The notes: generated by a model not told the origin, from the sequence alone. DNA of 64,000 nt from a candidate division FCPU426 bacterium (GCA_963738405.1 CAVTWJ010000013.1:6445-70444), one strand, 5' to 3'. Positions 8,339 to 62,375 are shown, numbered from the stretch's first letter. Numbers and translations are program-made.

Positions 8339-8415
8339 GTGCCCATAGCTCAATTGGATAGAGCTTCTGACTTCGGATCAGAAGGTTGCAGGTTCAAGTC
8401 CTGCTGGGCACACCA
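8339..8415 (+). tRNA. tRNA-Arg(TCG): tRNA-Arg, anticodon TCG, CCA encoded
   Basis: Hand-folded cloverleaf: GTGCCCA/TGGGCAC acceptor, GCTC/GAGC D stem, TCTGA-CTTCGGA-TCAGA anticodon arm, GCAGG-TTCAAGT-CCTGC T arm, 77 nt. Confidence 0.95.
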
Positions 8416-15082: not shown

Positions 15083-15111
15083 AACGGCTCCTTTGAATGG
15101 GTAACTGGTAC

Positions 15112-17624: not shown

Positions 17625-17628
17625 CGGG

Positions 17629-18135: not shown

Positions 18136-18315
18136 TTCCTGCTCCCAAAAGAGGTTGATCCGACGAGGCGAAGCAGGGCAATTTAAGCAGAAAAGGGGTG
18201 GGAATTGAGTAGGCGCAAAGAAACTACTATGTAAATTAGTTTGAAAATTACAGATGTACGAAATATTCCAAAAATAAAAGTTCACACCGCCGGATAAATT
18301 ACAACCATTTAACAG

Positions 18316-18330
18316 GTGGAAACTTTCCAC
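18316..18330. promoter_or_regulatory. Perfect palindrome GTGGAAA-c-TTTCCAC in the divergent CheX/CheX-like intergenic region
   Basis: Seen directly. The region also carries an 11-bp direct repeat tactatgtaaa at 18225 and 18346. Confidence 0.25.
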
Positions 18331-18397
18331 AAAAAAACTCAGCGGTACTATGTAAAAAATTGAAGCGTTATTTTTTTCCATCCGCAAGGAGAACGCC

Positions 18398-18874
18398 ATG
18401 AAAAACGATATTCAGATTAAACCCAGCACACCCCCGAGTGAAAAATTATTAAAAGAAGTTTTTTCTCAGGTGATGGAAGATTGGGCCAAGCTCATACCCC
18501 GGGAAGCCGAACAGCTCCAAAAAACCCCTTCCGGCGCGGCCATTGAACGAAAAGTCATTTTGTCGGGCCAGGGAGTTTTTCATCTGGTGGTAAGGGTTCC
18601 GGGAGTTTTCGGCTTGATCATGGGACGTTTGTTTGATCCCGGGAACGAGGCGGTCAACCCCGAGGATGCTTTCAGCGAGGTCGTCAGTATGTACTGCGGA
18701 CATTTAAAAGACGCGTTGTGGGGCGCTGAGGCGCCCTATACCCCATACCTTCCTGCCGCGAGTACCTCCAGCGACTGGCCCAGCCCCAAACCCGATATTT
18801 CCTGTTTTTTGAGGATTGGCGCCTATCCCGTGGAAATCATGTTATGGGATCTTTCGGCTCAAGACAAAAAGTAA
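18398..18874 (+). CDS. CheX-like paralog with a degenerate active-site motif
   Basis: DAFSEVVSMYCGHL... aligns to the CheX motif but has Ser in place of the consensus Asn, and the Pro is one residue out of register. Confidence 0.6.
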   Translation: MKNDIQIKPSTPPSEKLLKEVFSQVMEDWAKLIPREAEQLQKTPSGAAIERKVILSGQGVFHLVVRVPGVFGLIMGRLFDPGNEAVNPEDAFSEVVSMYCGHLKDALWGAEAPYTPYLPAASTSSDWPSPKPDISCFLRIGAYPVEIMLWDLSAQDKK

Positions 18875-44409: not shown

Positions 44410-45842
44410 AAACAACCTTTTCGTCCTTCAATCTAATCAAGATCGCTTCTATTTATGCCTTCCTTGCTCTTCTGGGAACTGCGGTTTGTGCCAAACCGCC
44501 CCAGTTTCCGCCTGAAACGCCTTTGGAAATAAAAGTTCCCGATATCCATGTCAAAACCCTTTCCTGCGGACTGAAGGTTCTCTTCATTCACGACGACCGC
44601 CTGCCTCTTGTTTCTGGCTCCCTCCGCATTCCGGGCGGCAATGTCTCGGACCCGCAAGGCAAGGAAGGTCTGGCGGCCCTGACGGCTGAGTCCCTTCGTA
44701 ACGGCGGTGCGGGAAAACTCAAACCCGGGGCTTTCGACGAGGCGCTGGAAAATAAGGCCATCTCCATGGGCTGTACCAGCGAGACGGAAGACTTTAACGC
44801 CACCTTCAATTGCCTGGCCCCCGATCTTTCGGAGGCTTTGGGATACTTCGCTGACCTGATTCGCCACCCGGGGTTTGACGCCAAACGTTTGGCTACCGAC
44901 CAATTGGACCAGGCGGAGGATTTAAACCGCGTGGAAGACACCCCCGATTCCATCACCAGGGTCCTTTTTACCAAGACTCTCTTTGGGCAGTCGCCTTACG
45001 GCCGGTGGGGAAGCCCCGCGACAGTTAAAAAGCTGAATCCCAACGACGTGAAGAATTTTTACGGAAAGCATTTCGGTCCCAAAGGATCTGTGCTGGTGGT
45101 GACCGGTAAGTTTGATGAGGATCAGGTTTCCGCTGAGCTGGAAAGACTCTTTTCAGGATGGAAGGCTCAGGGTCAAACACCCGCATATGCCGATGCCGAG
45201 CCCATGGGCCCCACGATTTACTTCTTCCCTAAGGATGTGACCCAGGTTTTTATCCGCTTCGGCCTGCCGGGTTTGAAGCGCCACGACCTCAATGACATAC
45301 CTCTTCAAGTCGCCAATTACGTATTGGGCGGTTCGGGCTTCACCTCGCGCTTGATGAGAGAAATTCGCTCCAATCGGGGGCTGGCCTACTTTGTGGATAG
45401 CTACTTCCTGCCCTATAACATCAAAGGCCCTTTCCAGGTTGTGGGAGGAACCCGGCCCGATTCGGTGAAGGAATATTTGACGGTCATGTTTGATCAGTTA
45501 GCCCAATACGCAAAGGAAGGTCCCACCGAAGCCGAGATGGAAGCAGCCCGGAAGGGAATGATTGAGGAATACGCTTATAACTTCGAATCATCTTTTAATC
45601 TCGCCACTTACGAAGGTTCGTTGGCCTTTAATGGCTACCCGGATGATTATCTGGAAACCTTCCGTGACAAGATCAAGGCCGTCACCGGGACCCAAGCCGC
45701 CGAAGCGGAACAAGCTGTTTTGAACCAGAAGAATTGGGTGCTGGTGGTTTGCGGGCCTGATGGTTTGCAGAAGGACCTGGAAGGTTTCGGTAAGGTCGTG
45801 ACGATGAAGAGCGTCTTCGCGCCGATTCCCGTAAAACCTTAA
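44406..45842 (+). CDS. M16-family peptidase, non-catalytic partner subunit
   Basis: M16 fold pattern but no HxxEH (GLAALTAESLRNGGAG at the equivalent place). ATGA overlap with the upstream gene. R/Y pair region ...SRLMREIRSNRGLAYFV. Confidence 0.85.
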   Translation: MKTTFSSFNLIKIASIYAFLALLGTAVCAKPPQFPPETPLEIKVPDIHVKTLSCGLKVLFIHDDRLPLVSGSLRIPGGNVSDPQGKEGLAALTAESLRNGGAGKLKPGAFDEALENKAISMGCTSETEDFNATFNCLAPDLSEALGYFADLIRHPGFDAKRLATDQLDQAEDLNRVEDTPDSITRVLFTKTLFGQSPYGRWGSPATVKKLNPNDVKNFYGKHFGPKGSVLVVTGKFDEDQVSAELERLFSGWKAQGQTPAYADAEPMGPTIYFFPKDVTQVFIRFGLPGLKRHDLNDIPLQVANYVLGGSGFTSRLMREIRSNRGLAYFVDSYFLPYNIKGPFQVVGGTRPDSVKEYLTVMFDQLAQYAKEGPTEAEMEAARKGMIEEYAYNFESSFNLATYEGSLAFNGYPDDYLETFRDKIKAVTGTQAAEAEQAVLNQKNWVLVVCGPDGLQKDLEGFGKVVTMKSVFAPIPVKP

Positions 45843-45888: not shown

Positions 45889-45962
45889 GGTAGCCCCACG
45901 GGGAATCGAACCCCGATTTAATGGCTGAGAACCATCCGTCCTAACCGTTAGACGATGGGGCC
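45888..45962 (-). tRNA. tRNA-Glu(CTC): tRNA-Glu, anticodon CTC, CCA encoded
   Basis: The reverse complement folds as GGCCCCA-TC-GTCT-AACGGTTA-GGAC-G-GATGG-TTCTCAG-CCATT-AAAT-CGGGG-TTCGATT-CCCCG-TGGGGCT-A-CCA. Confidence 0.95.
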
Positions 45963-48192: not shown

Positions 48193-48525
48193 GTGATTGA
48201 TCCATCCTTTGTTTTCAACATCAAAGCAGACTTTCTGAAAGCCCTGGCCCATCCGGGCAGGCTCAGGATCATTGAGCACCTGAAGCACGGGGAAAAATCG
48301 GTCAACGAAATGTGTAAGGCCTTGGAAATGGAGCAATCCGGCCTTTCCAAGCACCTGTCCGTCCTGAAACAGGCGGGAATCCTGAGTTCCCGCCAGGAAA
48401 AGGTGACCGTGTTCTATTTTGTCAGGGACAAGGGAATCTACGATGTTTTGAAACCCATTACCCTATTCCTGAAAAAAAAGTTTAAAGAGAGCCAGGTCAT
48501 GTTGGATCAATTGGCTAAAAACTAA
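48193..48525 (+). CDS. ArsR/SmtB-family transcriptional regulator
   Basis: FLKALAHPGRLRIIEHLKHGEKSVNEMCKALEMEQSGLSKHLSVLKQAGIL. GTG start with a GGGGAGG SD. Confidence 0.85.
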   Translation: MIDPSFVFNIKADFLKALAHPGRLRIIEHLKHGEKSVNEMCKALEMEQSGLSKHLSVLKQAGILSSRQEKVTVFYFVRDKGIYDVLKPITLFLKKKFKESQVMLDQLAKN

Positions 48526-48630: not shown

Positions 48631-49290
48631 ATGCAGTGGACGGTTAAGGAAGCCAGCGTATTTCTGCAGGTCCCGGAAGACACCCTCTTCGACTGGATCG
48701 ATAAAAGAGCCCTGCCAGCCACCCGTTTCAACGGTCGGTACCATTTCAACCGTTTGAAATTGACGGATTGGGCCCACGAAAACGGGGTACCCCTTCTCAT
48801 TCCCAATGGGGTTGATTTGCCCTCCTTAAGAGAGGCTTTGGAAGTGGGGGGGATTTACGAAAACATCCAGGGCGTTGATAAACCCGAGATCTTCAAAAAT
48901 ATCATGAAGCTTTTAAATATCCCGGAGGAAGAAGACCGGGAACTGGTTTGCCAAATGATCCTTTCCCGGGAGAGGGAAGGTTCCACCGAATTGGGAAACG
49001 GCATCGCCATTCCCCATGCCCGGCACCCGATTTTGCTCCATGTGGCGAAGCCCATGGTAGCCCTTTGCTATTTGAAAAACCCCGTCCCCTTTGGGGAATC
49101 GGATCGGCCCCCGGTTTCCGTCCTTTTCGTGATCCTTTCCCCCAGCATCCGGATGCATTTGCATTTCCTGGAGAGGCTAGGGTACGCGCTCCGGGACGAT
49201 GAGTTTTCCAGCCTGGTGCTATCCCGTGCGCATCCAACGAAAATCATGGACCGGCTGGCGGTTCTGAAGGATCAGTTGGAAAAGCGGTAA
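48631..49290 (+). CDS. HTH (excisionase/MerR-type) - PTS EIIA(Ntr/Fru-type) domain protein
   Basis: N-terminal WTVKEASVFLQVPEDTLFDWIDKRALPA, C-terminal EIIA pattern ...REREGSTELGNGIAIPHAR. Confidence 0.8.
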   Translation: MQWTVKEASVFLQVPEDTLFDWIDKRALPATRFNGRYHFNRLKLTDWAHENGVPLLIPNGVDLPSLREALEVGGIYENIQGVDKPEIFKNIMKLLNIPEEEDRELVCQMILSREREGSTELGNGIAIPHARHPILLHVAKPMVALCYLKNPVPFGESDRPPVSVLFVILSPSIRMHLHFLERLGYALRDDEFSSLVLSRAHPTKIMDRLAVLKDQLEKR

Positions 49291-49363
49291 CGGTTTTGGG
49301 TTGGTGAATGAAGGACGACACCTTGGCTGGATGGGTTGGAAGCGGAAAGGAAGCAACGATTCT

Positions 49364-51364
49364 ATGGGTTTGATCCTTGTACTCATCGCGCTTGCGGGCC
49401 TGGGTATCGTTGAAATAGCCGTCCTGCCCTTCAGGCGCCGATCCAACCTCGGACAGTATCTTTCCGCAGGCCTCACCCTCCTTTCCTCCCTCTGCGGGGG
49501 AATTGGTTTGGCGGATTATTATTCCGCGGGTGTTCCGCCCTCCATCGGCATGCCCTGGCAAGTTCCGGGAGGGTCCATCGCCCTGGAGCTCGACGGATTG
49601 ACGGCCTTTTTCCTGATTCCTGTTTTCCTTGTCTCTGGCCTTGGGGCGCTCTTTGGCCTGGAATACTGGAAACAATCGGAGAATCTCGAAAGCGGCAAGG
49701 GCCTCAGGCTCTTTTATGGTCTTCTTTCCCTGGGTATGGGGCTTCTGCTTCTGGCCCGCAACAGCCTTCTTTTCCTGGCGGGTTGGGAAATCATGGCGGT
49801 GGCCGCCTACTTTTTGATCGTGGTGGAGGATAAGGAAAAAAACGTAAGGCAGGCTGGCTGGATCTATTGGGTCTCAGCCCATCTGGGGCTCGCCGCGCTG
49901 ATGGTGATGTTTCTGCTGATGCGAAACCTACTGGGGACCTTCGATTGGTCGGTTCTTCCGCTGGATTCGTCGGTGGATTTCCGCTGCTCTGCCCTGTTTT
50001 TATTGGCCCTTTTCGGATTTGGCTTTAAGGCCGGGCTCATGCCTTTTCATTTCTGGCTTCCCCGGGCCCATTCCAGCGCCCCCAGCCATGTTTCTGGAAT
50101 CATGTCCGGCGTGATGTTGAACATGGGGGTTTACGGGATGATCCGCGTCCTGGGTTACCTTCCGCACCCCCCGATTTGGTGGGGAGTCCTGATGCTGGGG
50201 ATGGGAACTGCCTCCGGTGTCTTGGGAATCCTTCTGGCCATCGCCGAAAGCGATCTGAAGCGCATGCTGGCCTACAGCAGTATCGAAAATATTGGGATCA
50301 TTTTCATGGGTTTGGGTCTCGCCTTGATCGGGCGTTCCTCAGGGAACAGCCTCCTGCTTCAATTGGGGATGATGGCGGCGCTTTTCCATGTGCTCAACCA
50401 TAGCCTGTTCAAGACCGCTCTTTTTTATTGTTCGGGTTCGGTTTTGCACGCTTGCCACACCCGCCGGATGGACCACCTGGGAGGCTTGATCCCGATTCTT
50501 CCCCTCACCGGGTTGGCTTTCGTTATCGCCTCCTGCGCGGCCTGCGGCCTCCCCCCTTTAAACGGGTTCATCGGCGAATGGATTCTCTACCAGGGGTTTT
50601 TCCACCTGTCGGCGGCTGGTTCCATTTTTTACGCCCTCCTGGGAACCCTGGCCATCGGGGGATTGGCCCTGATTGGTACTTTAAGTGTGGTTTGTTTCGT
50701 AAGGGCTTTCGGGACCCTATTTCTGGGATCGCCCCGATTTTCATTGAAACCCCACGATCAAGAAAAGAAAGGGTTCATGATCTTCACCCTGTCCCTGTTG
50801 TTGGGGGGCTGCATGGGACTGGCCTTTCTTCCCGGACGAATCCTTTTTATATTAGGAAAAGCGATGGAAACCTGGGAAAGCGGGAGCGTCCCTTCCTCCC
50901 TCGAAAGCCTGGTTCCCTTGGGGGTTCTGGCCCTGTTGAACCTATCGTTATTGATTGTTTTTGGAGCCGGAGTGGGTTGGTTTGCCCTGAGGAAAAAAAA
51001 GTTCCTTTTCCAACAGCCCCAGGCTTTGGAAACTTGGAGCTGCGGATATAACGGGCCAACTTCCCCCCGGGTGCAATACACGGCTTCCTCCTTCGGGGAA
51101 ATCCTCTCGGGGGTCTACCAGTGGGCCATTCCCTCCCGGCTTCATCAGCCGAACGTGAAGGGGCCTTTACCCCCACCCTCCTGGTTTGCCACCCTTCCTT
51201 TTGACCGCATCTTGGGCGGAATCCTGATTCCTTCCATCCGGTCCTGGGGCGACAGAGTTTCGGTGCTCTTAAAGCTGCAACAGGGCCGAACCTCCATTTA
51301 TCTTCTTTATATTGTGGTTGTTTTCATCGCGGCCCTTTGCTGGGGAAGTTGGAGCCTGCCATGA
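49364..51364 (+). CDS. HyfB/HycC/NuoL-like antiporter-type membrane subunit (copy 1)
   Basis: SD plus ATG 49364. Motifs WEIMAVAAYFLI, GLMPFHFWLPRAHSSAPSHVSGIMSGVMLNMGVYG, LAYSSIENIGII. Confidence 0.85.
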   Translation: MGLILVLIALAGLGIVEIAVLPFRRRSNLGQYLSAGLTLLSSLCGGIGLADYYSAGVPPSIGMPWQVPGGSIALELDGLTAFFLIPVFLVSGLGALFGLEYWKQSENLESGKGLRLFYGLLSLGMGLLLLARNSLLFLAGWEIMAVAAYFLIVVEDKEKNVRQAGWIYWVSAHLGLAALMVMFLLMRNLLGTFDWSVLPLDSSVDFRCSALFLLALFGFGFKAGLMPFHFWLPRAHSSAPSHVSGIMSGVMLNMGVYGMIRVLGYLPHPPIWWGVLMLGMGTASGVLGILLAIAESDLKRMLAYSSIENIGIIFMGLGLALIGRSSGNSLLLQLGMMAALFHVLNHSLFKTALFYCSGSVLHACHTRRMDHLGGLIPILPLTGLAFVIASCAACGLPPLNGFIGEWILYQGFFHLSAAGSIFYALLGTLAIGGLALIGTLSVVCFVRAFGTLFLGSPRFSLKPHDQEKKGFMIFTLSLLLGGCMGLAFLPGRILFILGKAMETWESGSVPSSLESLVPLGVLALLNLSLLIVFGAGVGWFALRKKKFLFQQPQALETWSCGYNGPTSPRVQYTASSFGEILSGVYQWAIPSRLHQPNVKGPLPPPSWFATLPFDRILGGILIPSIRSWGDRVSVLLKLQQGRTSIYLLYIVVVFIAALCWGSWSLP

Positions 51365-53343
51365 CGCCACTCCTTCTTTATACCGCCCTGGGACTGGTGG
51401 CTTTCAGCGGCGTTCCCGGTTTGTTTTTCAACCGTCAATCCATGGGCGGGCAATGGCTTTCCATCCCCTTGTTTTGCGTGGGGTCGGCGGCGGGTTTGAT
51501 CGCGGCCTTCACGTCTTTGATCCATGGCGTGAGTGAAGTTTGGACCCTGCCCCTTACGGTTTGCGGAGGGAATATTTCATTCTTGCTCGACCCCCTCGCC
51601 TCCGTTTTTCTGGCCAGCATCTTCCTTATTTCCGCTTTGGGATCCATCTTTGGCTTGGAATATTGGAAACAGACCCAACATCCGTTTAACGGCGCAAAGC
51701 TGAGGTTTTTTTACGGTTTTCTGGCGGCGGGGATGGCCCTGGTGGTGGTCGCCCATGATTCCATCTTTTTCCTTTTTGCCTGGGAGGTCATGGCCCTCTC
51801 GGCTTTTTTCCTTATCACCACCGAGGATGAAAAAAAGGAAGCCCGGCAGGCCGGATGGCTTTATTTCGTCGCCACCCACTTTTCCACCCTTTTCCTTTTC
51901 GCTTTTTTCGCCTTTCTCCGACAGGCCGAAGGGTCCTTCGAAATCCTTCCCTTGAAGGCGGGGGATATCTCCGCCTCGGGCGCCAGCGGACTTTTCCTCC
52001 TGGCCCTGTTGGCTTTTGGCCTGAAGGCGGGCCTGTTTCCCCTCCATGTTTGGCTGCCTTCCGCCCACGCGAACGCACCCAGCCATGTTTCGGCGATTCT
52101 GTCCGGCGTGTTGCTCAAGGTCGGGGTCTATGGCTTGATGAGGGTGTGCTGGCTTTTCTCGGACCCGCCCCTCTGGTGGGGAACACTCCTGGTCGTGATG
52201 GGAATCCTTTCCTCCGTGTTGGGAGTGGCTTTCGCCCTGGGTCAGCACGATCTCAAAAGGCTGTTGGCTTATCACAGCGTGGAAAACATAGGGATCATCT
52301 TCCTGGGGTTGGGGCTGGCGCTCATCGGCAGGGCCGTGGGGAGGAGCGACCTGGTTTTGCTGGGGATGGCGGGAGCCTTGCTCCACGTTTGGAACCATGG
52401 CCTGTTCAAATCACTTCTTTTCCTCGGGGCGGGGTCGGTGATCCATGCCCTCCACACCCGGGAAATCGACCTTATGGGGGGAGTGGGGAAGAAGATGCCG
52501 CAGACATCCCTGTTGTTCCTGGTGGGTTCGGTGGCCATTTGCGGCCTCCCCCCCTTGAACGGATTCATCAGCGAGTTTCTGATTTTCCTCGGATTTTTCA
52601 GATGCCTGACCCTGTCGGGGATGGAAGGGAACCTGGGATTGTGGATGGGCGCGCCCGCGTTGGCCCTGACGGGGGCCCTGGCTTTGGCCTGTTTCACGAA
52701 GGTTTACGGGGCCGTTTTTCTAGGATCTCCCCGGTCGCCTTCGGTTCCCGAGGCGAGGGAAGGGGGAAGGGCTATTTTATTTCCAATGATTTTGCTCGGA
52801 TTCCTGTGTTTTGGGATCGGCTTGTTTCCCCAAACGGTGGCGCCTCTTTTGGAATCCGCGGTCCGGTGCTGGGAACCCTTGTCGGGTGCAGCCGCCCCCA
52901 CGCTGGCGGGCTGCGCCCCCTTAAACGTTTTTTCGGGCATGGGAATTACCTTTTTGGCTGTTTTGCTCATCGGAATTTATTGGCTCAACCGGAGGCCCAA
53001 AGACGGGAAAGAACCATCCCCTGTTTTAACGTGGGATTGCGGGTATATCCATCCGACCCCTTCCATGCAATACACCGCTTCTTCCTATGCCCAAACCTTG
53101 GTCGATTTTTTCAAATGGGTTTTGGTGCCTGAAAAAAGTTCCATCCAGATCAAAGGGAATTTTCCGAAAAGGATTACTTTCCACAGCCATGTGCCGGAAA
53201 CCGTTTTGGAATGGATCCTGATGCCCCTGGTTCGGGGGGGGCAATGGACACTCAAGTGGTTCAGGTATCTCCAGACTGGTTATCTGCAATCCTACGTTTT
53301 TTATATTTTTCTCACACTGCTGTTTTTTATTCTTTGGAGGTAG
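51361..53343 (+). CDS. HyfB/HyfD/NuoL-like antiporter-type membrane subunit (copy 2)
   Basis: ATGA overlap with copy 1. Motifs WEVMALSAFFLI, GLFPLHVWLPSAHANAPSHVSAILSGVLLKVGVYG, LAYHSVENIGII. Confidence 0.85.
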   Translation: MTPLLLYTALGLVAFSGVPGLFFNRQSMGGQWLSIPLFCVGSAAGLIAAFTSLIHGVSEVWTLPLTVCGGNISFLLDPLASVFLASIFLISALGSIFGLEYWKQTQHPFNGAKLRFFYGFLAAGMALVVVAHDSIFFLFAWEVMALSAFFLITTEDEKKEARQAGWLYFVATHFSTLFLFAFFAFLRQAEGSFEILPLKAGDISASGASGLFLLALLAFGLKAGLFPLHVWLPSAHANAPSHVSAILSGVLLKVGVYGLMRVCWLFSDPPLWWGTLLVVMGILSSVLGVAFALGQHDLKRLLAYHSVENIGIIFLGLGLALIGRAVGRSDLVLLGMAGALLHVWNHGLFKSLLFLGAGSVIHALHTREIDLMGGVGKKMPQTSLLFLVGSVAICGLPPLNGFISEFLIFLGFFRCLTLSGMEGNLGLWMGAPALALTGALALACFTKVYGAVFLGSPRSPSVPEAREGGRAILFPMILLGFLCFGIGLFPQTVAPLLESAVRCWEPLSGAAAPTLAGCAPLNVFSGMGITFLAVLLIGIYWLNRRPKDGKEPSPVLTWDCGYIHPTPSMQYTASSYAQTLVDFFKWVLVPEKSSIQIKGNFPKRITFHSHVPETVLEWILMPLVRGGQWTLKWFRYLQTGYLQSYVFYIFLTLLFFILWR

Positions 53344-53351
53344 TAAATCGG

Positions 53352-54260
53352 ATGATTCTTAATTCTGTGATCCATATTTTCCTGATCCTGTTCCTATCTC
53401 CCATTCTTTTGGGGGTCATCAACAAGACGAAAGCGCTCATCGCTGGGCGGGTGGGGCCGCCGCTTCTCCAGACCTATTTCGATCTGCTGAAACTTTTCAG
53501 GAAAGGAATGGTTTTCAGCCGGACCACCACTTGGGTGTTCCGGGCGGGGCCCCTGGTAGGTTGGGTTTCTGTCTTTGCCGCTTCCTTGATCGTTCCATTG
53601 GGACATCACAGGGCTCCCTTGGCTTTTCAGGGCGACATGATCTTCCTCGTTTATTTATTGGCCTTGGGACGGTTCTTCATGGCTTCCGCCGCTTTGGACA
53701 CGGGATCTTCCTTCGAGGGGATGGGGGCTTCCCGGGAGGTTTCCTTCGCGTCATTCGCCGAACCTGCCTTGTTTTTTGGTTTTCTCGCCCTCGCGAGGCT
53801 GTCCCAGACCTTCAGCCTGTCGGACATGGTTTTGGGTGAAAACTTCAGGGTCGGACCGGAAAAAACAGCGTCCCTGATCCTGATCACCGTCGCTTGGTTT
53901 ATTGTCCTCCTGGCCGAGAACAGCCGCATCCCCTTCGATGATCCCAATACCCATTTGGAATTGACCATGGTCCATGAGGTCATGGTGTTGGACCATAGCG
54001 GGCCCGCCTTGGGGCTCATCCTGCACGGGTCTTCCATGAAACTTCTTTTGATGGGCGCCCTCGTCATGGACGTCGCCCTCCCCTGGGACACCTCCAGCCT
54101 GGCGGATTGGTTCGCCTTCATCCTGGAGATGGGATTGCTGGCCATTCTTATCGGTTTGGTCGAGTCTTTCATCGCCCGGTTGAGGTTGGAGTTCATCCCG
54201 AATCTCTTGGTTTCGGCCTGTCTTTTGTCGGCCTTCGGCTTCATTCTTTTGGTGAGGTGA
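53352..54260 (+). CDS. HyfC/HycD/NuoH-like membrane subunit
   Basis: GGAGG SD plus ATG 53352. Motifs GVINKTKALIAGRVGPPLLQTYFDLLKLFRKG and ENSRIPFDDPNTHLELTMVHEVMVLDHSGP. Confidence 0.9.
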   Translation: MILNSVIHIFLILFLSPILLGVINKTKALIAGRVGPPLLQTYFDLLKLFRKGMVFSRTTTWVFRAGPLVGWVSVFAASLIVPLGHHRAPLAFQGDMIFLVYLLALGRFFMASAALDTGSSFEGMGASREVSFASFAEPALFFGFLALARLSQTFSLSDMVLGENFRVGPEKTASLILITVAWFIVLLAENSRIPFDDPNTHLELTMVHEVMVLDHSGPALGLILHGSSMKLLLMGALVMDVALPWDTSSLADWFAFILEMGLLAILIGLVESFIARLRLEFIPNLLVSACLLSAFGFILLVR

Positions 54261-54264
54261 AAAA

Positions 54265-54906
54265 ATGGAAATCGGGATCAATTCACTCATCGTTGTGGTG
54301 ATCTTGCTGAATTTCCTCGCCTTGGGCTCCAGCCAGATCGGGATCGTCATCCGCCTATCGGCCATCCAGGGGGTCCTGCTGGGGCTCATGCCCCTTCTCA
54401 TGGAGGGGTTTGGGGAAATCCATATGCCGTTGCTGACCTTGGCCATCATCTCCCTCAAGGGTTTTTTGATCCCGTCCCTTCTCTTCAAGGCCATGCGAGA
54501 CGTGAAAATCCGCCGCGAAGTGGAGCCGCTTTTGGGCTTTATCCCCTCGATGCTCTTGGGGGCGCTCGGAACGATCCTTGGGATACTGTTCTCGAATCAC
54601 CTTCCCCTGATCCCTCTTCATAAGGAATACCTGATCCTGCCCGGCTCTTTTTCCACGATCGCCTCTGGGTTCATCATGCTCACCACCCGCCACAAGGCCA
54701 TTACCCAGGTGGTGGGCTTCCTGATCCTTGAGAATGGGATATTCATTTTCGGGCTGCTTCTGCTGGGAACGATGCCTTTTTTGGTGGAGGTCGGCGTTTT
54801 ATTGGATTTGTTCGTCTGTGTGTTCGTCCTCGGAATCATTTTGAACCATATCCAGAAGGCTTTTTCGTCGCTGGACTCGAATAAATTAACTTCCTTAAAG
54901 GAATAA
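54265..54906 (+). CDS. HyfE-like (NuoK-related) membrane subunit
   Basis: A 213-aa all-helical hydrophobic protein in the HyfE position, between the HyfC-like and HyfF-like genes. Confidence 0.75.
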   Translation: MEIGINSLIVVVILLNFLALGSSQIGIVIRLSAIQGVLLGLMPLLMEGFGEIHMPLLTLAIISLKGFLIPSLLFKAMRDVKIRREVEPLLGFIPSMLLGALGTILGILFSNHLPLIPLHKEYLILPGSFSTIASGFIMLTTRHKAITQVVGFLILENGIFIFGLLLLGTMPFLVEVGVLLDLFVCVFVLGIILNHIQKAFSSLDSNKLTSLKE

Positions 54907-54910
54907 CCGG

Positions 54911-56343
54911 ATGCTTTACGTGATTTTGTTCATACCTTTTTTGGGCGGGGCGGCGGCATACCTTTTCCCGTCCAATCGCTTTCGCCCCTTCCTGCTCCCG
55001 GTTTTTTCATTTGCCCATCTTTTATGCGTCTTGAGTGTTTTGGGCCGGAATGATTTGTCGGCCGCGCAGGGTTGGCTGTTCTTGGACCCGCTCGGGAAAT
55101 TGGTTTTGGTGGTCGTCAGTGTTTTGTTTTCTGTTTGTTTCCTTTACGCTCCGGCTTACCTTTGGGTCAGGAGGGAATGGTCGAACCGCGTTTTTTGCAG
55201 TTGCCTTCTTTTCTTGCTGGCGCTTTTATCCCTCGTCACTTTTTCCAGGCAAGTAGGCCTGATGTGGGTGGCCATCGAGGCCACTTCCCTGGTCAGCGCC
55301 CCGCTGATTTATTTCAACCACAACAACCGTTCCATTGAGGCGGCCTGGAAATTCCTCCTGGTCTGCTCCGTGGGGATTGCCCTGGCGCTTTTGGGCTCGT
55401 TCTTTTTAGGCTATTCCGCCCTCGTCGGGGGGGTGTCCTCGACCCTGATGATGGATGATCTGGCTCGGTCGGCGCAGTCGCTTTCCAAGCCTTGGCTTCA
55501 CGCCGCCTTCGCGGCCCTGTTAGTCGGCTATGGGACCAAAATGGGGTTGGCTCCCCTCCACACTTGGAAACCCGACGCCTATGGGGAGTCCCCGGGCCTG
55601 GTGGGGGCCTTGATGGCGGGCGGGATAACCAGTTGCGCCTTCCTGGCGATCTTGCGTGTCACCAAGATTCTTCACGCCGCCGGGGAAGGGTTTTTCGCGG
55701 ACCGGGCCTTGATGGGGCTGGGGCTTTTGTCCATCGCCTTCGGGGCCGTCTTCATGGCCCGGCAAAAGGATTTCAAGAGGATGCTGGCCTATTCGAGCGT
55801 GGAGCACATGGGCATCCTGGTGTTGGGCGTGAGCATGGGCGGGATCGGGATCTTCGGGTCGTTTCTTCACCTCGTCAACAACGCCCTGACCAAGGGGATT
55901 TTGTTCCTCTCCGCGGGAAACATTCATCGCGCCTATAACAGCAAATCGACGGATGATGTTTCGGGGGCGATCCGGAGGCTTCCGGTGTCCGGTTATCTGT
56001 TCCTGGCCGGGTTCATCGCCATCACCGGCTCGCCCCCTTTCGGGCCTTTCTTAAGCGAGTTCACGATTTTGAGATCCATCTTTGAGAACCACCAATACCT
56101 CGTGGGGGGGGGGTTCTCTTTCTGCTGATGGCGGTTTTCATGGGCATGGGAAGCACGGTGCTGGCGGTTTGCTTGGGGGAACCTTCGGACGCGGCGAAGG
56201 CAACTGATTTTCATGACAGTTTTTTCCTGGTCCTGCCGCCCCTGCTGATGATGGGGCTGGTTCTGCTCTTGGGCCTTTATATCCCCGATTCCGTTATGAA
56301 GCTTATTCAGGACGCGGTGAATGATTGGAGTATCCTCTCATGA
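54911..56343 (+). pseudogene. HyfF/NuoN-like antiporter-type subunit interrupted by a frameshift in a G10 tract
   Basis: ORF 54911..56128 ends ...YLVGGGFSFC-stop. ORF 56128..56343 continues as a TM helix if read from the G run (..GGGVLFLLMAVFMGMG..). G10 lies at 56104-56113. Confidence 0.75.
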
Positions 56344-57857
56344 CCCCCATGGAACATTTTGTCATCCTCACCAACGGATCCTCCGTGGACTATGGGCGGA
56401 TTCCCTCACTGGAGTTCGACGATTTCAGGCAATGCATGCGCCACGGCGTAGAGAAGGGTTTTCGTGTGGTTTCCTTTTTCGGGGCATTCCCTGAGGAAGG
56501 GGAGGGAGTGGACCTGATGGCGGTATTCGCCGACGATCCTAACAACCGCCTCCTAGTATTTAAGACCCGCGTTCGGGAAGGAAGTTACCCGTCGCTCACA
56601 CCCGATTGTCCCCAATTGCACCTCTTTGAAAGGGAAATATTCGAGCAGTTCGGGCTTACCCCTAAGGGACATCCCTGGTTGAAGCCTGTCCGGTTTTCCC
56701 GTTCGGGTTGGAATCCAAAAAATCCCGAAGGGATTCCGCCAATTGGTCTGATGGACTTTTACCAGGTCAAGGGAGACGAGGTGCACGAGGTGTCGGTGGG
56801 GCCGGTCCATGCGGGCGTGATCGAGCCCGGCCATTTCCGTTTCCAATGCCACGGTGAAGAGGTTTTTCACCTGGAGATATCGCTTGGGTACCAGCACCGG
56901 GGAGTTGAGGAAGCCCTGATTGCGGGGCCCCGCAAGGATTCCTTTTACCAAATGGAGGCGGCCTCGGGGGACTCTACCATCGCCCATGCCTGGGCCTATT
57001 GCCAAAACCTGGAAAGCTTGAGGGGCGCCAAGATCACCGCCCACGACTGGATGGTGAGGGCCATCGCCCTGGAACTGGAACGCCTAGCCAACCATACGGG
57101 GGACCTGGGCGCCCTGGCGGGGGATGTGGGGTTTCTTCCCACCGCATCCTATTGCGGAAGGATTCGGGGGGATTTCCTCAACATGACCGCCGCCTTATGC
57201 GGAAGCCGGTTTGGACGAAGCCTGCTGAAGGTGGGGGGCAACCGCTTTCAGTTGGATATTCCCCAAGCAGGCGGCCTGTTGAAAAGATTGGCCGAAGCGG
57301 AAAGGGATGTCACTCAAGCGGTGGATCTCCTGTGGGAATCGGCCTCGGTGGTGGATCGGTTTGACGATACGGGCGCCGTCAGTCAGGACCAGGCCAGGGA
57401 ATTGGGGTGGGTGGGCCCCACCGCCCGAGCCTGCGGCGTGGAAACGGACGTGAGGTTCAATCACCCCTTTGGCCCCTACCGGTTCGTGGTGGTTCCGGTT
57501 TCCACGGCCCATGCCGGGGACGTGCATTCCCGGGCCTTTGTTCGCTGGCTGGAGATCAAGAGGTCCATCCAGTTCGTCAGGGAAAGATTGATGAACCTGC
57601 CTTCCCCCGAAAAGGAAAAACCGGCTGGGCCCGTAGCGGCTGGCCGCTTGGCAGTTTCAATGACCGAGGGCTGGAGGGGGGAAGTCTGCCATGTGGCCTT
57701 GACGGGGAAGGACGGACAGTTCATCCGCTACAAGATCACCGACCCTTCCTTCCACAACTGGAGCGCTCTCGCCCTTTCCATGCGCAACCAGGCAATTTCC
57801 GATTTCCCCGTTTGCAACAAGAGTTTCAACCTTTCTTATTGCGGGCACGACCTATGA
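56340..57857 (+). CDS. HycE/HyfG-like NuoC-NuoD fusion large subunit lacking the Ni-Fe ligand cysteines (Ehr-type)
   Basis: ATGA overlap at 56340-56343. Conserved GPVHAGVIEPGHFRF and LGYQHRG. SGDSTIAH sits where RxCGxCxxxH is expected, and SFNLSYCGHDL where DPCxxCxxR is expected. No CxxC occurs anywhere in the protein. Confidence 0.85.
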   Translation: MTPMEHFVILTNGSSVDYGRIPSLEFDDFRQCMRHGVEKGFRVVSFFGAFPEEGEGVDLMAVFADDPNNRLLVFKTRVREGSYPSLTPDCPQLHLFEREIFEQFGLTPKGHPWLKPVRFSRSGWNPKNPEGIPPIGLMDFYQVKGDEVHEVSVGPVHAGVIEPGHFRFQCHGEEVFHLEISLGYQHRGVEEALIAGPRKDSFYQMEAASGDSTIAHAWAYCQNLESLRGAKITAHDWMVRAIALELERLANHTGDLGALAGDVGFLPTASYCGRIRGDFLNMTAALCGSRFGRSLLKVGGNRFQLDIPQAGGLLKRLAEAERDVTQAVDLLWESASVVDRFDDTGAVSQDQARELGWVGPTARACGVETDVRFNHPFGPYRFVVVPVSTAHAGDVHSRAFVRWLEIKRSIQFVRERLMNLPSPEKEKPAGPVAAGRLAVSMTEGWRGEVCHVALTGKDGQFIRYKITDPSFHNWSALALSMRNQAISDFPVCNKSFNLSYCGHDL

Positions 57858-57878: not shown

Positions 57879-58658
57879 ATGTATAGGATCTTGAAGGCCA
57901 GATTCCAGCAGGGCCACCGGACGATTGAATTTCCCAAAGGTCCGTCCCCCTCCATGCCGGACCACTTCCGGGGGCTCCCGGTTATTGATACGGCCCAATG
58001 CCCGCAAGGGTGCCGGGAATGCGTGGAGGCCTGCCCGGTGGATGCCATTTCGATGAAGGGCGAGAAACCTCAAATCGACCTGGGGCGATGCCTTTTTTGC
58101 ACCGACTGCATGGAAGCCTGCCCGCAAGGGGCGATTGAATATGGCGGGGATTACCGACTGGCTTCCCGCACCAGGGAAGGCCTGAAGGTCGCCCCGAATA
58201 TGGAAATAAAGTTGGCGCAGGCACTGGACGAGAAACTTCTCCGTCTCTTCGGCCGTTCACTCAAATTAAGGCAGGTTTCCGCCGGAGGCTGCAACGCTTG
58301 CGAGGCGGATGTGAACGTGTTGGGCACGGTAGGTTGGGACCTAGGACGATTCGGAATCCAGATGGTGGCCTCGCCCCGGCACGCGGACGGGCTCCTGGTC
58401 ACCGGCTGCGTCACCGAAAACATGAAGGTGGCGCTGGAAAAAACCTATGCGGCGGTCGCGCCTCCCAAAATCGTCATTGCGGTGGGGGCTTGTGCTATTT
58501 CAGGAGGGCCTTTTCTAAAAAATTCCCAGCAGTTGGGAGGCGCGGGATCCACGGTGCCGGTAGATCTTTACATACCAGGGTGTCCGCCCCATCCCTTGAC
58601 GATTTTAGACGGTTTATTAAGGCTTTTGGGCCGGTTGGAAGGCCGTAAGGGCCCATAG
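57879..58658 (+). CDS. Fusion of a 2x[4Fe-4S] ferredoxin (HycF/HyfH/NuoI-like) with the NuoB/HycG-like small subunit
   Basis: CPQGCRECVEACP and CLFCTDCMEACP, then GGCNACE, GACAISGG and PGCPPHP (the four Cys of the proximal cluster). Confidence 0.85.
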   Translation: MYRILKARFQQGHRTIEFPKGPSPSMPDHFRGLPVIDTAQCPQGCRECVEACPVDAISMKGEKPQIDLGRCLFCTDCMEACPQGAIEYGGDYRLASRTREGLKVAPNMEIKLAQALDEKLLRLFGRSLKLRQVSAGGCNACEADVNVLGTVGWDLGRFGIQMVASPRHADGLLVTGCVTENMKVALEKTYAAVAPPKIVIAVGACAISGGPFLKNSQQLGGAGSTVPVDLYIPGCPPHPLTILDGLLRLLGRLEGRKGP

Positions 58659-58798: not shown

Positions 58799-59743
58799 AT
58801 GAAGGTTTATGAAGGGGAGACTCGTATGAACTTTAAAGTGATAGTCCTGTTTTTACTTACCATCGCCCTTGGTTTCGCGGCGGGGTTGGTGCCTTCCGAC
58901 ATCGTGGGGGGCGAAAGTTATATCGATGGTTTGATCCCCGCCAAGGGGGCCTGTCTGGGGCTCATGATCGGCCTCCTCATTTTTATCCTGGGTCGCATCC
59001 TCTCCGTTGGGTTTTACGGCAAGACCCTGAAGGCCCTATTGCTCGCTTCAGGCATCGCCTTTCTTGGGTGTTATTTTGGAAATTTTGTTCGGGATGGGTC
59101 CGAGACCCTTCAAATTACCACCGCGCAGTTTCTGCAGCTGGAAGCCTGCCCGAGGGGCCTAGCCGCCTTTATGGATTATATGGGGGACGACCTGAAAGAA
59201 ATCGACCTTCAGGACGATATCACGAAAAAACCCAGCAGTTCCTTCGGGCCTGTCATGACGAAGATTCTTTTTATCGTCGATCTGTTTCTATGCGTCTGTT
59301 TCTTTTTCCTGGTCGTGTTTTTTTTCTTCGTGAATTTCTCCTATTGCCGAACCTGCCTGCGGTACAAGAAAAAATCCGGGTCCACGGTTCTTTATTTTCC
59401 CCAGGACAACAGCGACACCTTTTCCGTTTTTTTGGGAAACGTGGGCGGATTGATCCAGGGAGGGGACTATTCCAAAACCGTGGCGTTTCTTCTCGACGCG
59501 AAGCGGGGGCAGGATGTTGTTTTTACGCCTGATTTCGTGAAAAGCAAAGAAATGAAACGAACCGCCCATTTCAAAGTGACCCTGACCGAAACCCGTTGTC
59601 CGGTCTGCCAAGAATCGACCCTCAAGGGAGATGTGCAATCACAGGACTCGGCTGGAAATTTGTCCGCCATTACCCATTTGAACTTCAGCCTCACCTCCAA
59701 GCCCCACGAAAACCCCATAGCCTTGAGTGCGTTAGCTGTTTAA
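58799..59743 (+). CDS. Hypothetical membrane protein with a cytoplasmic Cys4 (CRTC...CPVC) domain
   Basis: Four or five hydrophobic helices, including a Phe-rich FLCVCFFFLVVFFFFVNF. The start is uncertain (alternative ATG 58826). Confidence 0.5.
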   Translation: MKVYEGETRMNFKVIVLFLLTIALGFAAGLVPSDIVGGESYIDGLIPAKGACLGLMIGLLIFILGRILSVGFYGKTLKALLLASGIAFLGCYFGNFVRDGSETLQITTAQFLQLEACPRGLAAFMDYMGDDLKEIDLQDDITKKPSSSFGPVMTKILFIVDLFLCVCFFFLVVFFFFVNFSYCRTCLRYKKKSGSTVLYFPQDNSDTFSVFLGNVGGLIQGGDYSKTVAFLLDAKRGQDVVFTPDFVKSKEMKRTAHFKVTLTETRCPVCQESTLKGDVQSQDSAGNLSAITHLNFSLTSKPHENPIALSALAV

Positions 59744-59765: not shown

Positions 59766-61124
59766 ATGGCCCAACCGCAAAACAAAAAAACGGCAGCCGA
59801 AACTAAACCAGACCCCTTCGTGGGCCGTAGGGGCCCTGTTCATTTTATGCCCCGTAAAACCCTAGTTCTTTTTCTTACGGCGGGATTTTTGGTTCTGGTT
59901 GGGGTCATGTGGCTTTGCACCCTGCTTCATCCCCTCCCGCCCCGTACCCTCACCCTGGCCACCGGGCCGGAAGGAAGCTCTTACGCTTGGTGGGGAAAGC
60001 GCTACAAGATCCTTTTGGCAAAACAGGGAATCGATTTGGTTTTGAAAAACACCAACGGCGGGGTTGAAAATCTTAACCTTTTGCGCGACCCGAATTCGGG
60101 CGTGCAGGCGGGCTTTGTGGAAGGTGGCGTGGCCACGGAGGATGACTCGGCCGCCTTGGATTCCCTGGGCACCCTGGGATATGAGCCGGTTTGGATCTTT
60201 TCGCATAAAGTTGGATCGGACCGCATCCTCTTCGCCCTCCGGGGCAAGAAGGTGGCCCTGGGGCCCGAGGGCAGCGATTCCCGGGCATTGGTGGAAGAAC
60301 TGCTCAAGCGCAATACCTTGGATATCAACGCCTACAATGCCGCGAACCTGGAGCCGGAAGACGCCGCCAATGCCCTGGTGGCTGGTAAGGTCGACGCGGC
60401 CATCCTCATGCTCAATTGGGGTTCACCTATCATTCGCAAACTCATCACTTCGCCGGGAATCGACCTGGCGAATTTCGACAGGGCCGACGCCTATGTGGCG
60501 CTGTTTCCTTCGTTGTACAAGCGGGTGGTGCCCATGGGAGTGGCGGATCTGGAACATAACCGACCTCCAAAGGACACGACCCTTTTAGCCACCAAGACCA
60601 GCCTGATCATACGGGAGGGTCTGCACCCGGCCCTGCAATACCTGTTGTTGGAAGCGGCCTCCCAGATCCACTCGCACGCGGGCATCTTTCAGAAGGCTGG
60701 GGAGTTTCCGGCGCCCGAGGCTTTGGAGATCGACTTGAGCCCCGACGCGAGGCATTTTTACAAATCGGGAAGACCGTTCCTTCAGCGCTATATGCCCTTT
60801 TGGCTCGCGGCCCTGGCGGAGCAGGTGCTGGTGCTTTTGCTTCCCCTGGTGGGATTGCTCTATCCACTTGGCCGGGGCCTAGCCTCCCTTTATGGCTGGG
60901 GTATGCAAAGAAAGATTTACCTCATCTACGGCGAGCTTCATTTCCTCGAGAGGGATATCCACCAGATGGGAAACAAGCCTCCGACCGAGGATGTCTTGAC
61001 CCGTTTGAAGAGCCTGGAGGAGCGGGCCAATCGGGTTCGGGTATCGCAAAACTATATCCCGATGCTTTACAGCCTGAAGGAAAATATCTCCTACGTCCGC
61101 GCCCGGCTTTCCAAGCGGAGTTGA
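59766..61124 (+). CDS. TAXI-family (TRAP-associated) solute-binding protein with N- and C-terminal membrane segments
   Basis: LTLATGPEGSSYAWWGKRYKILLAKQGIDLVLKNTNGGVENLNLL...VQAGFVEGG, and C-terminal TM WLAALAEQVLVLLLPLVGLLYPL plus a coiled tail. Confidence 0.7.
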   Translation: MAQPQNKKTAAETKPDPFVGRRGPVHFMPRKTLVLFLTAGFLVLVGVMWLCTLLHPLPPRTLTLATGPEGSSYAWWGKRYKILLAKQGIDLVLKNTNGGVENLNLLRDPNSGVQAGFVEGGVATEDDSAALDSLGTLGYEPVWIFSHKVGSDRILFALRGKKVALGPEGSDSRALVEELLKRNTLDINAYNAANLEPEDAANALVAGKVDAAILMLNWGSPIIRKLITSPGIDLANFDRADAYVALFPSLYKRVVPMGVADLEHNRPPKDTTLLATKTSLIIREGLHPALQYLLLEAASQIHSHAGIFQKAGEFPAPEALEIDLSPDARHFYKSGRPFLQRYMPFWLAALAEQVLVLLLPLVGLLYPLGRGLASLYGWGMQRKIYLIYGELHFLERDIHQMGNKPPTEDVLTRLKSLEERANRVRVSQNYIPMLYSLKENISYVRARLSKRS

Positions 61125-61343
61125 AAAGTTTAGGGGGACTAAGCGCTGTAAACTCGAAAACAAAAATGTAGATATAAACTTTTTCGATAGATATACCTCT
61201 TTGCTCCTCACCTAAAAACCTCAATTTGCCTTTGATTTGATCAATCCCAACCTGCCTCATTTGGCATGGAGGTTGCCCGTTTACCTATAAGCGACAACTC
61301 AGCTCGATTGAGGGTAATCGCGGGATGGCCCTTGAGGAGAAGC

Positions 61344-62375
61344 ATGATTCCCCCTCCCAGACCCTTTGATGAATCCAACCGGCGCGATGAACTGCTGGAA
61401 TTAAACCTGCTGGATACCCCTGCCCAGGAAAGCTTTGACCGGATCACCCGCCTCGCGGTCCGCCTTTTTCAGGTTCCCATCGTCCTGGTGACTTTGGTCG
61501 ATAAAGACCGGGTTTGGTTCAAGTCGGCCCTTGGTACGGATCTTTTAGAGGTGCCCCGGGAAATTTCCTTTTGCGGCCACGCCATTCTTAACCACGAAGC
61601 CCTGATTTTGCCGGATGCCTTGGAAGATGAGCGCTTCCGGGACAATCCCTTGGTGACCGCCAACCCGCCCATCCGTTTTTACGCCGGACATCCCCTTTCG
61701 GGGCCCAAGGGACGCCGGGTTGGCGCCCTTTGCCTGATAGACCACCAGCCAAGAGAATTCGGCCCTGAAAACCTCTCGTCCCTTAAGGACCTGGCCGCGC
61801 TGGTGGAGACCCAGCTGGGGGTGTCCCGCGTGAGCCAGTCCCAAAGGCGCCTGCTCAGGGAGCGGGACCAGCTTTTCAGCATGGCCCGGATGGATTCCCT
61901 CACCGGCCTTTGGAATAGGGGGGCGGTGCTTGAGTTTTTTCAACAGGAATGGGAAAACGCCATTGAGCAGACGGTTCCCTTAAGCCTGATCCTCGCCGAT
62001 ATGGACCATTTCAAGCGAATCAACGACACCTACGGACATCTCAGCGGAGACCAGGTATTAAAAGAGTCCGCGGCCCGAATCCAATCCTGCCTGAGAGATA
62101 CGGACCTGGCCGGAAGGTACGGCGGTGAGGAATTTATGCTCATCCTGCCAGGGGTGGGGGCCTCTAAGGCCTGGGAAATCGCCGAAAGGATTCGGCGGCG
62201 GATTTGCGAGGAGCCTTTTGAGCTTCTCAGCGGAAGCCATACCTTCACGATCAGCCTGGGGTGCGGCACCCTGACCGGGGGGCTCAGCCTGGACCCCTTT
62301 TTCAACCAGGTGGATCAAGCCTTGTACCAGGCCAAGAACGGCGGACGAAACCGCACCTGCCGGGCCCCTGAGTGA
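61344..62375 (+). CDS. GAF-GGDEF diguanylate cyclase
   Basis: GAGGAGA SD plus ATG 61344. GAF signature DESNRRDELLELNLLDTPAQESFDRITRLA...VDKDRVWFKS, an I-site RDTD, and the active site GGEEF. Confidence 0.9.
   Translation: MIPPPRPFDESNRRDELLELNLLDTPAQESFDRITRLAVRLFQVPIVLVTLVDKDRVWFKSALGTDLLEVPREISFCGHAILNHEALILPDALEDERFRDNPLVTANPPIRFYAGHPLSGPKGRRVGALCLIDHQPREFGPENLSSLKDLAALVETQLGVSRVSQSQRRLLRERDQLFSMARMDSLTGLWNRGAVLEFFQQEWENAIEQTVPLSLILADMDHFKRINDTYGHLSGDQVLKESAARIQSCLRDTDLAGRYGGEEFMLILPGVGASKAWEIAERIRRRICEEPFELLSGSHTFTISLGCGTLTGGLSLDPFFNQVDQALYQAKNGGRNRTCRAPE

Follow-up and report, generated by a model that had tools for sequence, protein, structure and literature searches.

The Ehr class ('Ech-related' or 'energy-converting hydrogenase-related') was defined by Coppi and Marreiros et al. 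2013, in the wording quoted in PMC6349859, PMC10284858 and PMC7304191, as relatives of the group 4 [NiFe] hydrogenases that lack the Ni/Fe-coordinating residues. In Geobacter sulfurreducens the complex is encoded by GSU0739-0745, as EhrA-1, EhrA-2, EhrB, EhrC, EhrD, EhrL and EhrS, and all of these subunits have been detected in proteomes of the organism (PMC7894505). The absence of CxxC motifs was published in 2012 for a second such complex, Hyq (PMC3357923), and the Cys-less large subunit has been described for Ehr and Hyq alike (PMC3357923, PMC6349859, PMC10284858). The gene considered here lies at 56340-57857 on the + strand of a 64-kb stretch of DNA from a candidate division FCPU426 bacterium, the whole of which is referred to below as the window. 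It encodes a fused NuoC+NuoD/HycE-like large subunit without Ni–Fe ligands, which is almost certainly an Ehr/Hyq-family large subunit, EhrL, and not a decayed hydrogenase. The Cys-less large subunit is a rediscovery of a published property, and the view that such a site has evolved and not decayed, which the original prediction had put forward for this gene, is not new.

The translation is an intact protein of 505 residues. CxxC occurs nowhere in it, as had been claimed, and neither does any C-x(1-4)-C. Eight cysteines had been counted; there are in fact ten, at residues 32, 90, 170, 221, 272, 287, 365, 450, 492 and 501, but the assertion that all are isolated is correct, the nearest pair being Cys492 and Cys501, nine positions apart. 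The expected landmarks that flank the former metal site are kept, with GPVHAGVIEPGHFRF at residue 154 and LGYQHRG at residue 182. Where the large subunits of group 4 enzymes carry the L1 motif RxCGxCxxxH (RVCGICGFAH in HycE), EhrL reads AASGDSTIAH and retains just the Gly and the His; the codons for Ser209-Gly210-Asp211-Ser212, which stand in place of CGxC, occupy 56964-56975 (+), in agreement with the original prediction. The L2 motif (D/N)(P/L)CxxCxx(H/R/D) is also missing. The protein ends ...NKSFNLSYCGHDL (...ISDFPVCNKSFNLSYCGHDL), with NLSYCGHDL at the place of DPCYSCTDR in HycE, and the codons of N493-KSFNLSYCGHD-L505, in place of the C-terminal CxxC motif, lie at 57816-57854 (+). The four Ni–Fe ligand positions are occupied in EhrL by Ser209, Ser212, Ser499 and Gly502.

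The register of these replacements is confirmed by independent comparisons. Pfam assigns the C-terminal part of the homology to PF00346 (NuoD/49-kDa) and, weakly, the N-terminal part to PF00329 (NuoC-like). In HMMER searches against solved structures the best match is E. coli HycE (7z0s_E, E 2.9e-43), and MbhL also matches (E 1.1e-31); the HycE alignment places SGDS opposite CGIC and NLSY opposite DPCY. Among 50%-identity cluster representatives from a phmmer search of the full database, three proteins that are 33-36% identical to EhrL (P0236, P0253 and P0254) carry both Cys pairs, in the motifs R[IV]CG[VA]C...H and NKSF[EN]LCYSC[TC]D[RL], and in a multiple alignment these pairs fall in the columns replaced in EhrL. 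BLASTP aligns EhrL with P0254 without gaps across both motifs, with ASGDSTIAH opposite VCGACSFSH and NKSFNLSYCGHD opposite NKSFNLCYSCTD; the C-terminal motif of P0254 is NLCYSCTDR. The alignments with HycE and P0254 therefore agree that SFNLSYCGHDL has taken the place of the anticipated DPCxxCxxR/H. The C-terminus of EhrL coincides with the end of mature HycE, with no extension beyond it, so that C-terminal processing is not implied.

The replaced segments are not peculiar to this gene. CxxC is absent from 119 of the 120 nearest homologues of EhrL (58-87% identity, 500-540 aa, many sources), and within this set the replacement segments, xGD[ST][ST].[AG]H and ISDFPLCNKSFNLSYCG[HF]DL, are among the best-kept parts of the protein. 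An alignment of 21 sequences contains about 130 invariant columns, which include Gly210, Asp211, His216, Arg446, Ser499, Tyr500, Cys501, Gly502, Asp504 and Leu505, as well as Cys90, Cys170, Cys272, Cys287 and Cys450. In a broader set of 97 representatives (50% clustering), in which Gly210-Asp211 is near-invariant, 94 are Cys-less and share Glu162, Gly210-Asp211, Arg446, Asn493, Ser499-Tyr500, Gly502 and Asp504-Leu505. EhrL is under strong purifying conservation.

A pattern scan of a collection with one genome per species, followed by confirmation of the relatives, gave at least 592 matching stretches that belong to EhrL relatives. The matches listed come from Planctomycetota, Verrucomicrobiota, Geobacterales, Acidobacteriota (Geothrix, Holophagaceae, Thermoanaerobaculia) and Spirochaetota, and also from Gemmatimonadota, Lentisphaerota, Chlamydiota, Omnitrophota and some Alphaproteobacteria. 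In a crude neighbour-joining tree, drawn without support values, the three CxxC proteins form one clan and all Cys-less proteins the other, a split that fits a single ancient loss of the cysteines. The lineage is descended from group 4 [NiFe] hydrogenases, and all four Ni–Fe cysteines were lost long ago. The claim of an evolved site is upheld by the recurrence of the same replacements (A/S, S/T, S and G) across a family of many phyla, by the appearance of new near-invariant residues and by the retention of hydrogenase residues. Its further characterization as a "non-hydrogenase" site expresses the majority view, which is not proven in light of the genetics of Hyq discussed below.

In [NiFe] hydrogenases the (R)IEPGH strand supplies a proton-relay Glu and the xRG motif the canopy Arg. 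What we take to be the equivalents of these residues, Glu162 and Arg446, are retained around the former metal site of EhrL, together with His216 of the CxxxH element and Asp504, which precedes the C-terminus. The former Cys positions now hold small or hydroxyl residues. The invariant Asp211 occupies the 'x' of CGxC, presumably the position of Val74 in the Desulfovibrio fructosovorans enzyme, the residue that gates the gas channel where it reaches Ni. Cys501, which aligns with the Ser of CYSC, and Cys492 are near-invariant in the EhrL subfamily and variable in other subfamilies. A new four-Cys cluster composed of Cys170, Cys287, Cys492 and Cys501 was considered and rejected, as these residues are common in the subfamily but not co-conserved. 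An AlphaFold 2 monomer model of EhrL (predicted local distance difference test score, pLDDT, 76; predicted template-modelling score 0.83) reproduces the HycE/NuoCD fold. Its best Foldseek match is again HycE (7z0s_E), with a template-modelling (TM) score of 0.82, followed by the NuoCD proteins of E. coli and Aquifex (NuoCD TM 0.78).

The window complex is of the Geobacter type. EhrA, EhrD, EhrB, EhrC, EhrL and EhrS are all encoded in the window, in the same set and order as in Geobacter; EhrL is a group 4 homologue without any Ni–Fe-binding cysteine, the small subunit keeps its Fe–S ligands, and the quinone-binding residues of complex I are absent from the NuoD-like subunit. Among the matches listed, loci from Geobacter, Geomonas limicola, Pelobacter and Geobacteraceae encode an EhrL that is 54-58% identical, in the same operon. 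The two differ in host organism and in the frameshift that interrupts ehrD in the window, and the comparison is with Geobacterales metagenome-assembled genomes and Geomonas limicola rather than with the G. sulfurreducens sequence itself.

Hyq is a more distant relation, compared here through the copy on pTA1_4 of Rhizobium ruizarguesonis (L084). HyqG is a NuoC::NuoD fusion of 504 residues without CxxC, 34% identical to EhrL (E 7e-70). Its sites read RTSGDSTVAY and CNKSFNCSYSGHDL (DFPLCNKSFNCSYSGHDL), the same hallmarks as in EhrL, and the C-terminal hallmark CNKSFN.SY.GHDL is common to both proteins. The Hyf-like membrane subunits and an operon that begins with a regulator are likewise shared. 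However, the hyqRBCEFGI architecture of the Azorhizobium caulinodans type is not that of the window operon: Hyq has one HyfB-like subunit in place of two EhrA proteins, and its conserved cysteine lies at position 497 rather than 501. HyqI (177 aa, L084 10384-10917) holds a NuoB-type cluster only, whereas EhrS is a ferredoxin–NuoB fusion; without a ferredoxin domain in HyqI, electron entry into Hyq is visible only at the large-subunit pocket. The regulators differ as well, HyqR being a small helix-turn-helix (HTH) protein that lacks an EIIA domain and does not align with the HTH+EIIA protein of the window. The hyq operon belongs to a nif regulon and is controlled by NifA and sigma-54; upstream of the ehr genes of the window a sigma-54 site was looked for and not found. 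A Variovorax plasmid copy, 43% identical, has the fused small subunit.

With the group 4 [NiFe] hydrogenases proper (HycE/HyfG, and P0236, P0253 and P0254) the window system shares the fold, the fused layout of NuoC-like and large-subunit domains, the Hyf-type membrane arm, a NuoB-like small subunit with its proximal [4Fe-4S] cluster, and the IEPGHFRF, xRG and NKSF..Y..D motifs, in keeping with the homology to HycE and MbhL. It differs in the four replaced ligands, in the Asp at the 'x' of CGxC, in the lack of a C-terminal extension and in the fusion of the HyfH and HyfI equivalents into EhrS. Complex I is built from homologous modules (NuoCD, NuoB, NuoH and NuoL-M-N) and, like Ehr, has a NuoB-type cluster beside the pocket and no NiFe site, but the window operon lacks the NADH module (NuoEFG), and EhrS has CxxC where NuoB has a tandem CC. 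The MBS/Mbx complex of Pyrococcus furiosus (6u8y) offers a parallel as a second respiratory complex that derives from a hydrogenase and has ceased to produce H2, although it is archaeal, far more distant in sequence and equipped with an Mrp-type membrane arm.

The EhrL gene is the sixth of seven tightly packed, co-oriented ehr genes, all on the + strand, and nearly all of the 80 or so related loci keep this order. The first two encode HyfB/NuoL-like antiporter-type membrane subunits. EhrA-1 (49301-51364; PF00361, E 1e-50) has as its best NCBIfam match hydrogenase 4 subunit B, under the cut-off, and its true start is likely near 49364, relatives being 666-668 aa long; EhrA-2 (51337-53343; PF00361, E 1e-56) is HyfB-like. 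Two EhrA copies occur in 20 of 56 loci and one copy in 31. EhrB (53352-54260; PF00146, E 1.6e-35) is a NuoH/HyfC-like membrane subunit with orthologues of 303 aa, and the longer open reading frame (ORF) with a listed start at 53211 extends it too far upstream. EhrC (54265-54906) is HyfE-like, by an NCBIfam match to the hydrogenase 4 membrane subunit that is under the cut-off (E 6e-18) and by synteny in related loci. EhrD (54911-56343), a HyfF/NuoM-like antiporter-type subunit, matches PF00361 (E 1.7e-47) over a 405-aa first part, beyond which it is interrupted by a frameshift. EhrA-1, EhrA-2 and EhrD keep three motifs that we take to be those of complex I: WE/IE, with the Glu of transmembrane helix 5 (TM5), K[AM]GL.P.H.W.P, with the Lys of TM7, and GF[IL][GS]E[FW], with the Glu of TM12.

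The last gene of the series, at 57879-58658 (+), encodes EhrS, an N-terminal 2x[4Fe-4S] ferredoxin (HycF/NuoI-like) fused to a NuoB/HycG-like domain, with matches to PF01058 and the Fer4 families. Its 259 residues include 12 cysteines (41, 45, 48, 52, 71, 74, 77, 81, 138, 141, 205 and 235), which serve three [4Fe-4S] clusters, the NuoB-type cluster being that of Cys138, Cys141, Cys205 and Cys235. Each Fe–S cysteine is kept in 48-55 of 60 family members. A three-cluster electron wire is complete in EhrS, beside a remodelled pocket that is itself strongly kept. The first ferredoxin-type motif (57999-58034, residues 41-52) has the form C-x3-C-x2-C-x3-C-P instead of the canonical C-x2-C-x2-C-x3-C-P; the C-x3-C spacing is kept by the family and is seen in the Variovorax plasmid copy too.

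The ehrD frame is lost at a run of ten G residues (56104-56113, +) that is one G short, a gap of one nucleotide relative to two related loci (L081 and L083) in which ehrD is intact, at 477 and 478 aa, and reads GGG GGC GTT at this site. The frame ends 15 nt past the run (...YLVGGGFSFC*, stop at 56126-56128), and the remaining 73 or so codons, which still match the intact orthologues, are read in a different frame as far as the ATGA at which ehrD and the start of ehrL overlap. No other G/C run of nine or more occurs in the window. Since ehrD downstream of this point has no stops and retains about 90% identity to L081, the interruption is to be read either as an assembly error in a metagenome-derived contig or as a mutation of very recent date, possibly at a slippage-prone site. 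It is irrelevant to the loss of the Cys ligands, which is ancient.

It is probable that the protein is the EhrL of an Ehr-type complex and that this complex works by the general mechanism of a redox-coupled ion pump. The membrane arm would consist of EhrA-1, EhrA-2, EhrD, EhrB and EhrC, and the peripheral arm of EhrL and EhrS. A soluble low-potential donor, reduced ferredoxin, may feed electrons into the two ferredoxin-type clusters of EhrS. By way of the NuoB-type cluster they would then reach, and reduce, an acceptor in the remodelled pocket formed by EhrL, EhrS and EhrB. Reduction of the acceptor could then drive ion translocation through the three antiporter-like subunits, and operation in reverse is also conceivable. 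Clustering of every ORF in the 10 kb to either side of ehr in 80 related loci showed no recurrent neighbour apart from the seven ehr genes themselves and an HTH-EIIA gene upstream of them, and no partner dehydrogenase in particular; the lack of an encoded partner dehydrogenase fits a soluble donor, most simply ferredoxin. As to the acceptor, three antiporter-like modules together with a NuoH module fit a large drop in potential, as from ferredoxin to menaquinone, and fit poorly the drop from ferredoxin to H+. A membrane quinone is ranked first for this reason, as a tentative choice; H+, reduced to H2 at an unconventional site, is an unlikely one, and the acceptor is otherwise perhaps something not yet considered.

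Other explanations of the gene must be weighed against this one. Were EhrL a recently decayed [NiFe] hydrogenase, a pseudogene whose frame happens still to be open, the frameshift in neighbouring ehrD might be read as a companion lesion. However, the SGDS and NLSYCG replacements are near-invariant in orthologues; the closest relatives, at 87% and 78% identity, carry them in place of CxxC, as do orthologues at 55-65% identity in many phyla, and the replaced motifs are among the 130 or so invariant columns. The EhrL frame is of full length and ends at the same position as those of its relatives, and the intact state of ehrD beyond its frameshift means that the operon, if inactivated at all, was inactivated very recently, or else that the lesion is an artefact. 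Decay can be given practically no credence. Only slightly more credible, and still highly improbable, is the implication of the automatic name, that EhrL is the NuoCD subunit of respiratory complex I. That name reflects the Pfam matches to Complex1_49kDa and Complex1_30kDa, the structural similarity to NuoCD and the database names of homologues. Against it, the NCBIfam scores are far under their cut-offs (150.8 against 360 bits for NuoD, 87.1 against 840 for NuoC/D), HycE is a closer match to EhrL than any NuoD is, the Tyr87 and His38 ligands of complex I are absent, and the operon is of the Hyf type, without NuoE/F/G, A, J, K or N. Bacteria with Hyq also carry a separate, bona fide nuo operon (PMC2650096).

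A more serious, though still unlikely, alternative is an unconventional hydrogenase, in which the Cys-poor pocket (Asp211, Glu162, Arg446, Cys492 and Cys501, or their equivalents) would bind a different metal centre and interconvert H2 and H+. The proposed precedent is Hyq, described as an 'endo-hydrogenase' (H2:quinone oxidoreductase), which has the same hallmark motifs as EhrL. Both uptake and evolution of H2 are reported to depend on Hyq in A. caulinodans, on evidence obtained in vivo only: in a strain deleted for hyqRBCEFGI, net evolution of H2 was about 15-fold higher in diazotrophic culture, whereas about 80% of the H2 evolved under microaerobic conditions was lost (PMC3357923, PMC2650096). 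With no ferredoxin domain in HyqI, the pocket is the only obvious cytoplasmic redox site of Hyq, and the EhrL family retains the Glu, Arg and His on which [NiFe] hydrogenases rely. Yet none of the four metal-ligating cysteines is kept, and the candidate Cys ligands differ between subfamilies: Cys501 is Ser or Ala in the Hyq-like group, and the equivalent of Hyq Cys497 is Leu in EhrL. By the authors' own statement a cell-free hydrogenase assay of Hyq is lacking (PMC3357923), and others hold that proteins of this kind are incapable of interacting with H2 (PMC7304191, PMC10284858). The only functional data, those on Hyq in vivo, are thus in conflict with the sequence-based view. Neither hyp maturation genes nor other hydrogenase genes were found in the window, and hyp genes are not a recurrent neighbour in the 80 loci. 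It is comparably doubtful that Asp211, with Glu162, Arg446, His216 and the subfamily residues Cys492 and Cys501, constitutes a genuinely new catalytic site, be it a Cys-poor, H2-active metal centre or a site for a novel acceptor. Less probable again is a thiol or sulfur reductase resembling archaeal MBS/Mbx, in which the proximal cluster and Cys501/Cys492 would reduce a disulfide, polysulfide or similar compound. MBS does provide a precedent for a group 4 relative without NiFe chemistry (6u8y_L is among the HMMER matches), and two near-invariant subfamily cysteines adjoin the former active site. The similarity to MbsL is weak, however (E 6.7e-11, compared with 2.9e-43 for HycE), the membrane arm is Hyf-like and not Mrp/MBS-like, Cys501 and Cys492 are replaced in many members, and lineages from soil and fresh water commonly carry the family.

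Several observations also weigh against a ferredoxin-dependent, quinone-reducing ion pump. The quinone ligands of complex I are absent: in the HMMER alignment with Thermus thermophilus Nqo4 (2fug_4), Tyr87 lies opposite Gly210 and His38 opposite Ile161, with residue numbers that we take to be those of Nqo4 and with an alignment that is less certain in the His38 loop. Hence a quinone site, if there is one, is not of the complex I type. The structural model does not resolve the pocket, since pLDDT falls below 50 at residues 122-183 and 499-505, which contain the beta1-beta3 region and the C-terminal motif. With ehrD frameshifted in the window, the complex may not be functional in the host organism. 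No biochemical or structural characterization of Ehr was found in the literature searched, and the PDB, as of April 2026, yielded no structure of Ehr or Hyq. Some lineages that carry Ehr are reported to lack quinone biosynthesis (PMC6349859), and the genetics of the related Hyq complex indicate H2 turnover (PMC3357923).

Directly upstream of the ehr genes, at 48631-49290 (+), lies a gene for a putative regulator that combines an HTH_17 domain with a PTS_EIIA_2 (PtsN-like) domain, identified by NCBIfam matches to PtsN/fruA EIIA and to excisionase-type HTH families. The protein has 219 residues, and its HTH is of the excisionase/MerR type; the orthologue in L081 and L083 carries PF12728 and PF00359. 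Of the 56 loci whose sequence reaches 8 kb or more upstream of ehr, 40, in several phyla, have such a gene there, and in 37 of these it lies on the same strand. The histidine of its GIAIPH motif, the phosphorylatable residue, is kept in at least 90%. This recurrence and the kept phospho-His suggest, at the level of sequence, that Ehr may be controlled by the nitrogen phosphotransferase system (PTS) through the HTH-EIIA protein. No description of a link between HTH-EIIA and Ehr was found in the literature searched. A gene with an ArsR-type HTH (48193-48525) precedes the HTH+EIIA gene both in the window and in L083, and a second HTH+EIIA paralogue, present in L081, is absent from the window. A search for a sigma-54 (-24/-12) site upstream of ehr gave only matches at or below chance, and scans for sigma-70 promoters and terminators were at chance level.

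Other candidates for partners of Ehr were set aside. Further recurrent ORF clusters near ehr proved to be antisense ORFs inside the operon in GC-rich genomes. A SulP anion/bicarbonate transporter gene stands beside ehr in four loci (L035 10383-12371; L059 2357-4264; L061 12116-14029; L067 9991-11952) and a beta-carbonic anhydrase gene two genes upstream of ehr in a single one (L083 433-1092); a link to inorganic carbon is possible, but both neighbours are too rare to be taken as partners.

Ehr and Hyq complexes are widespread and stand on the evolutionary line between the energy-converting hydrogenases and complex I. The window brings no new principle to this picture. It does allow the family to be defined at the level of residues, by xGD[ST] and NKSFNLSY[CSA]G.DL, by the retained hydrogenase Glu, Arg and His and, in the Geobacter type, by the three-cluster wire. 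These motifs and the HTH-EIIA partner gene are handles for mutagenesis and for annotation, where the current names of EhrL genes, 'NADH-quinone oxidoreductase subunit C' and 'Ni,Fe-hydrogenase III large subunit', are both misleading. If a new catalytic site and a PTS-Ntr-type switch acting through HTH-EIIA were both real, they would amount to an unrecognised branch of respiration in many bacterial phyla.

Downstream of ehrS the window encodes a 314-aa membrane protein (58799-59743) that has no family match and is not kept beside ehr elsewhere, then a TAXI-type TRAP solute-binding protein (59766-61124) and a GAF-GGDEF diguanylate cyclase (61266-62375). Near the start of the window two integrase-core (rve) transposase genes, at 2574-3641 (-) and 5409-6251 (+), mark insertion sequences. 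A chemotaxis cluster at 13496-18399 (-) encodes a methyl-accepting chemotaxis protein, CheA and a CheX-like protein. An Rfam scan of the window returned two tRNAs only, at 8339-8412 (+) and 45891-45962 (-). A pair of genes for secreted M16-type peptidase-like proteins, with overlapping stop and start codons, occupies 42862-45842 (+).

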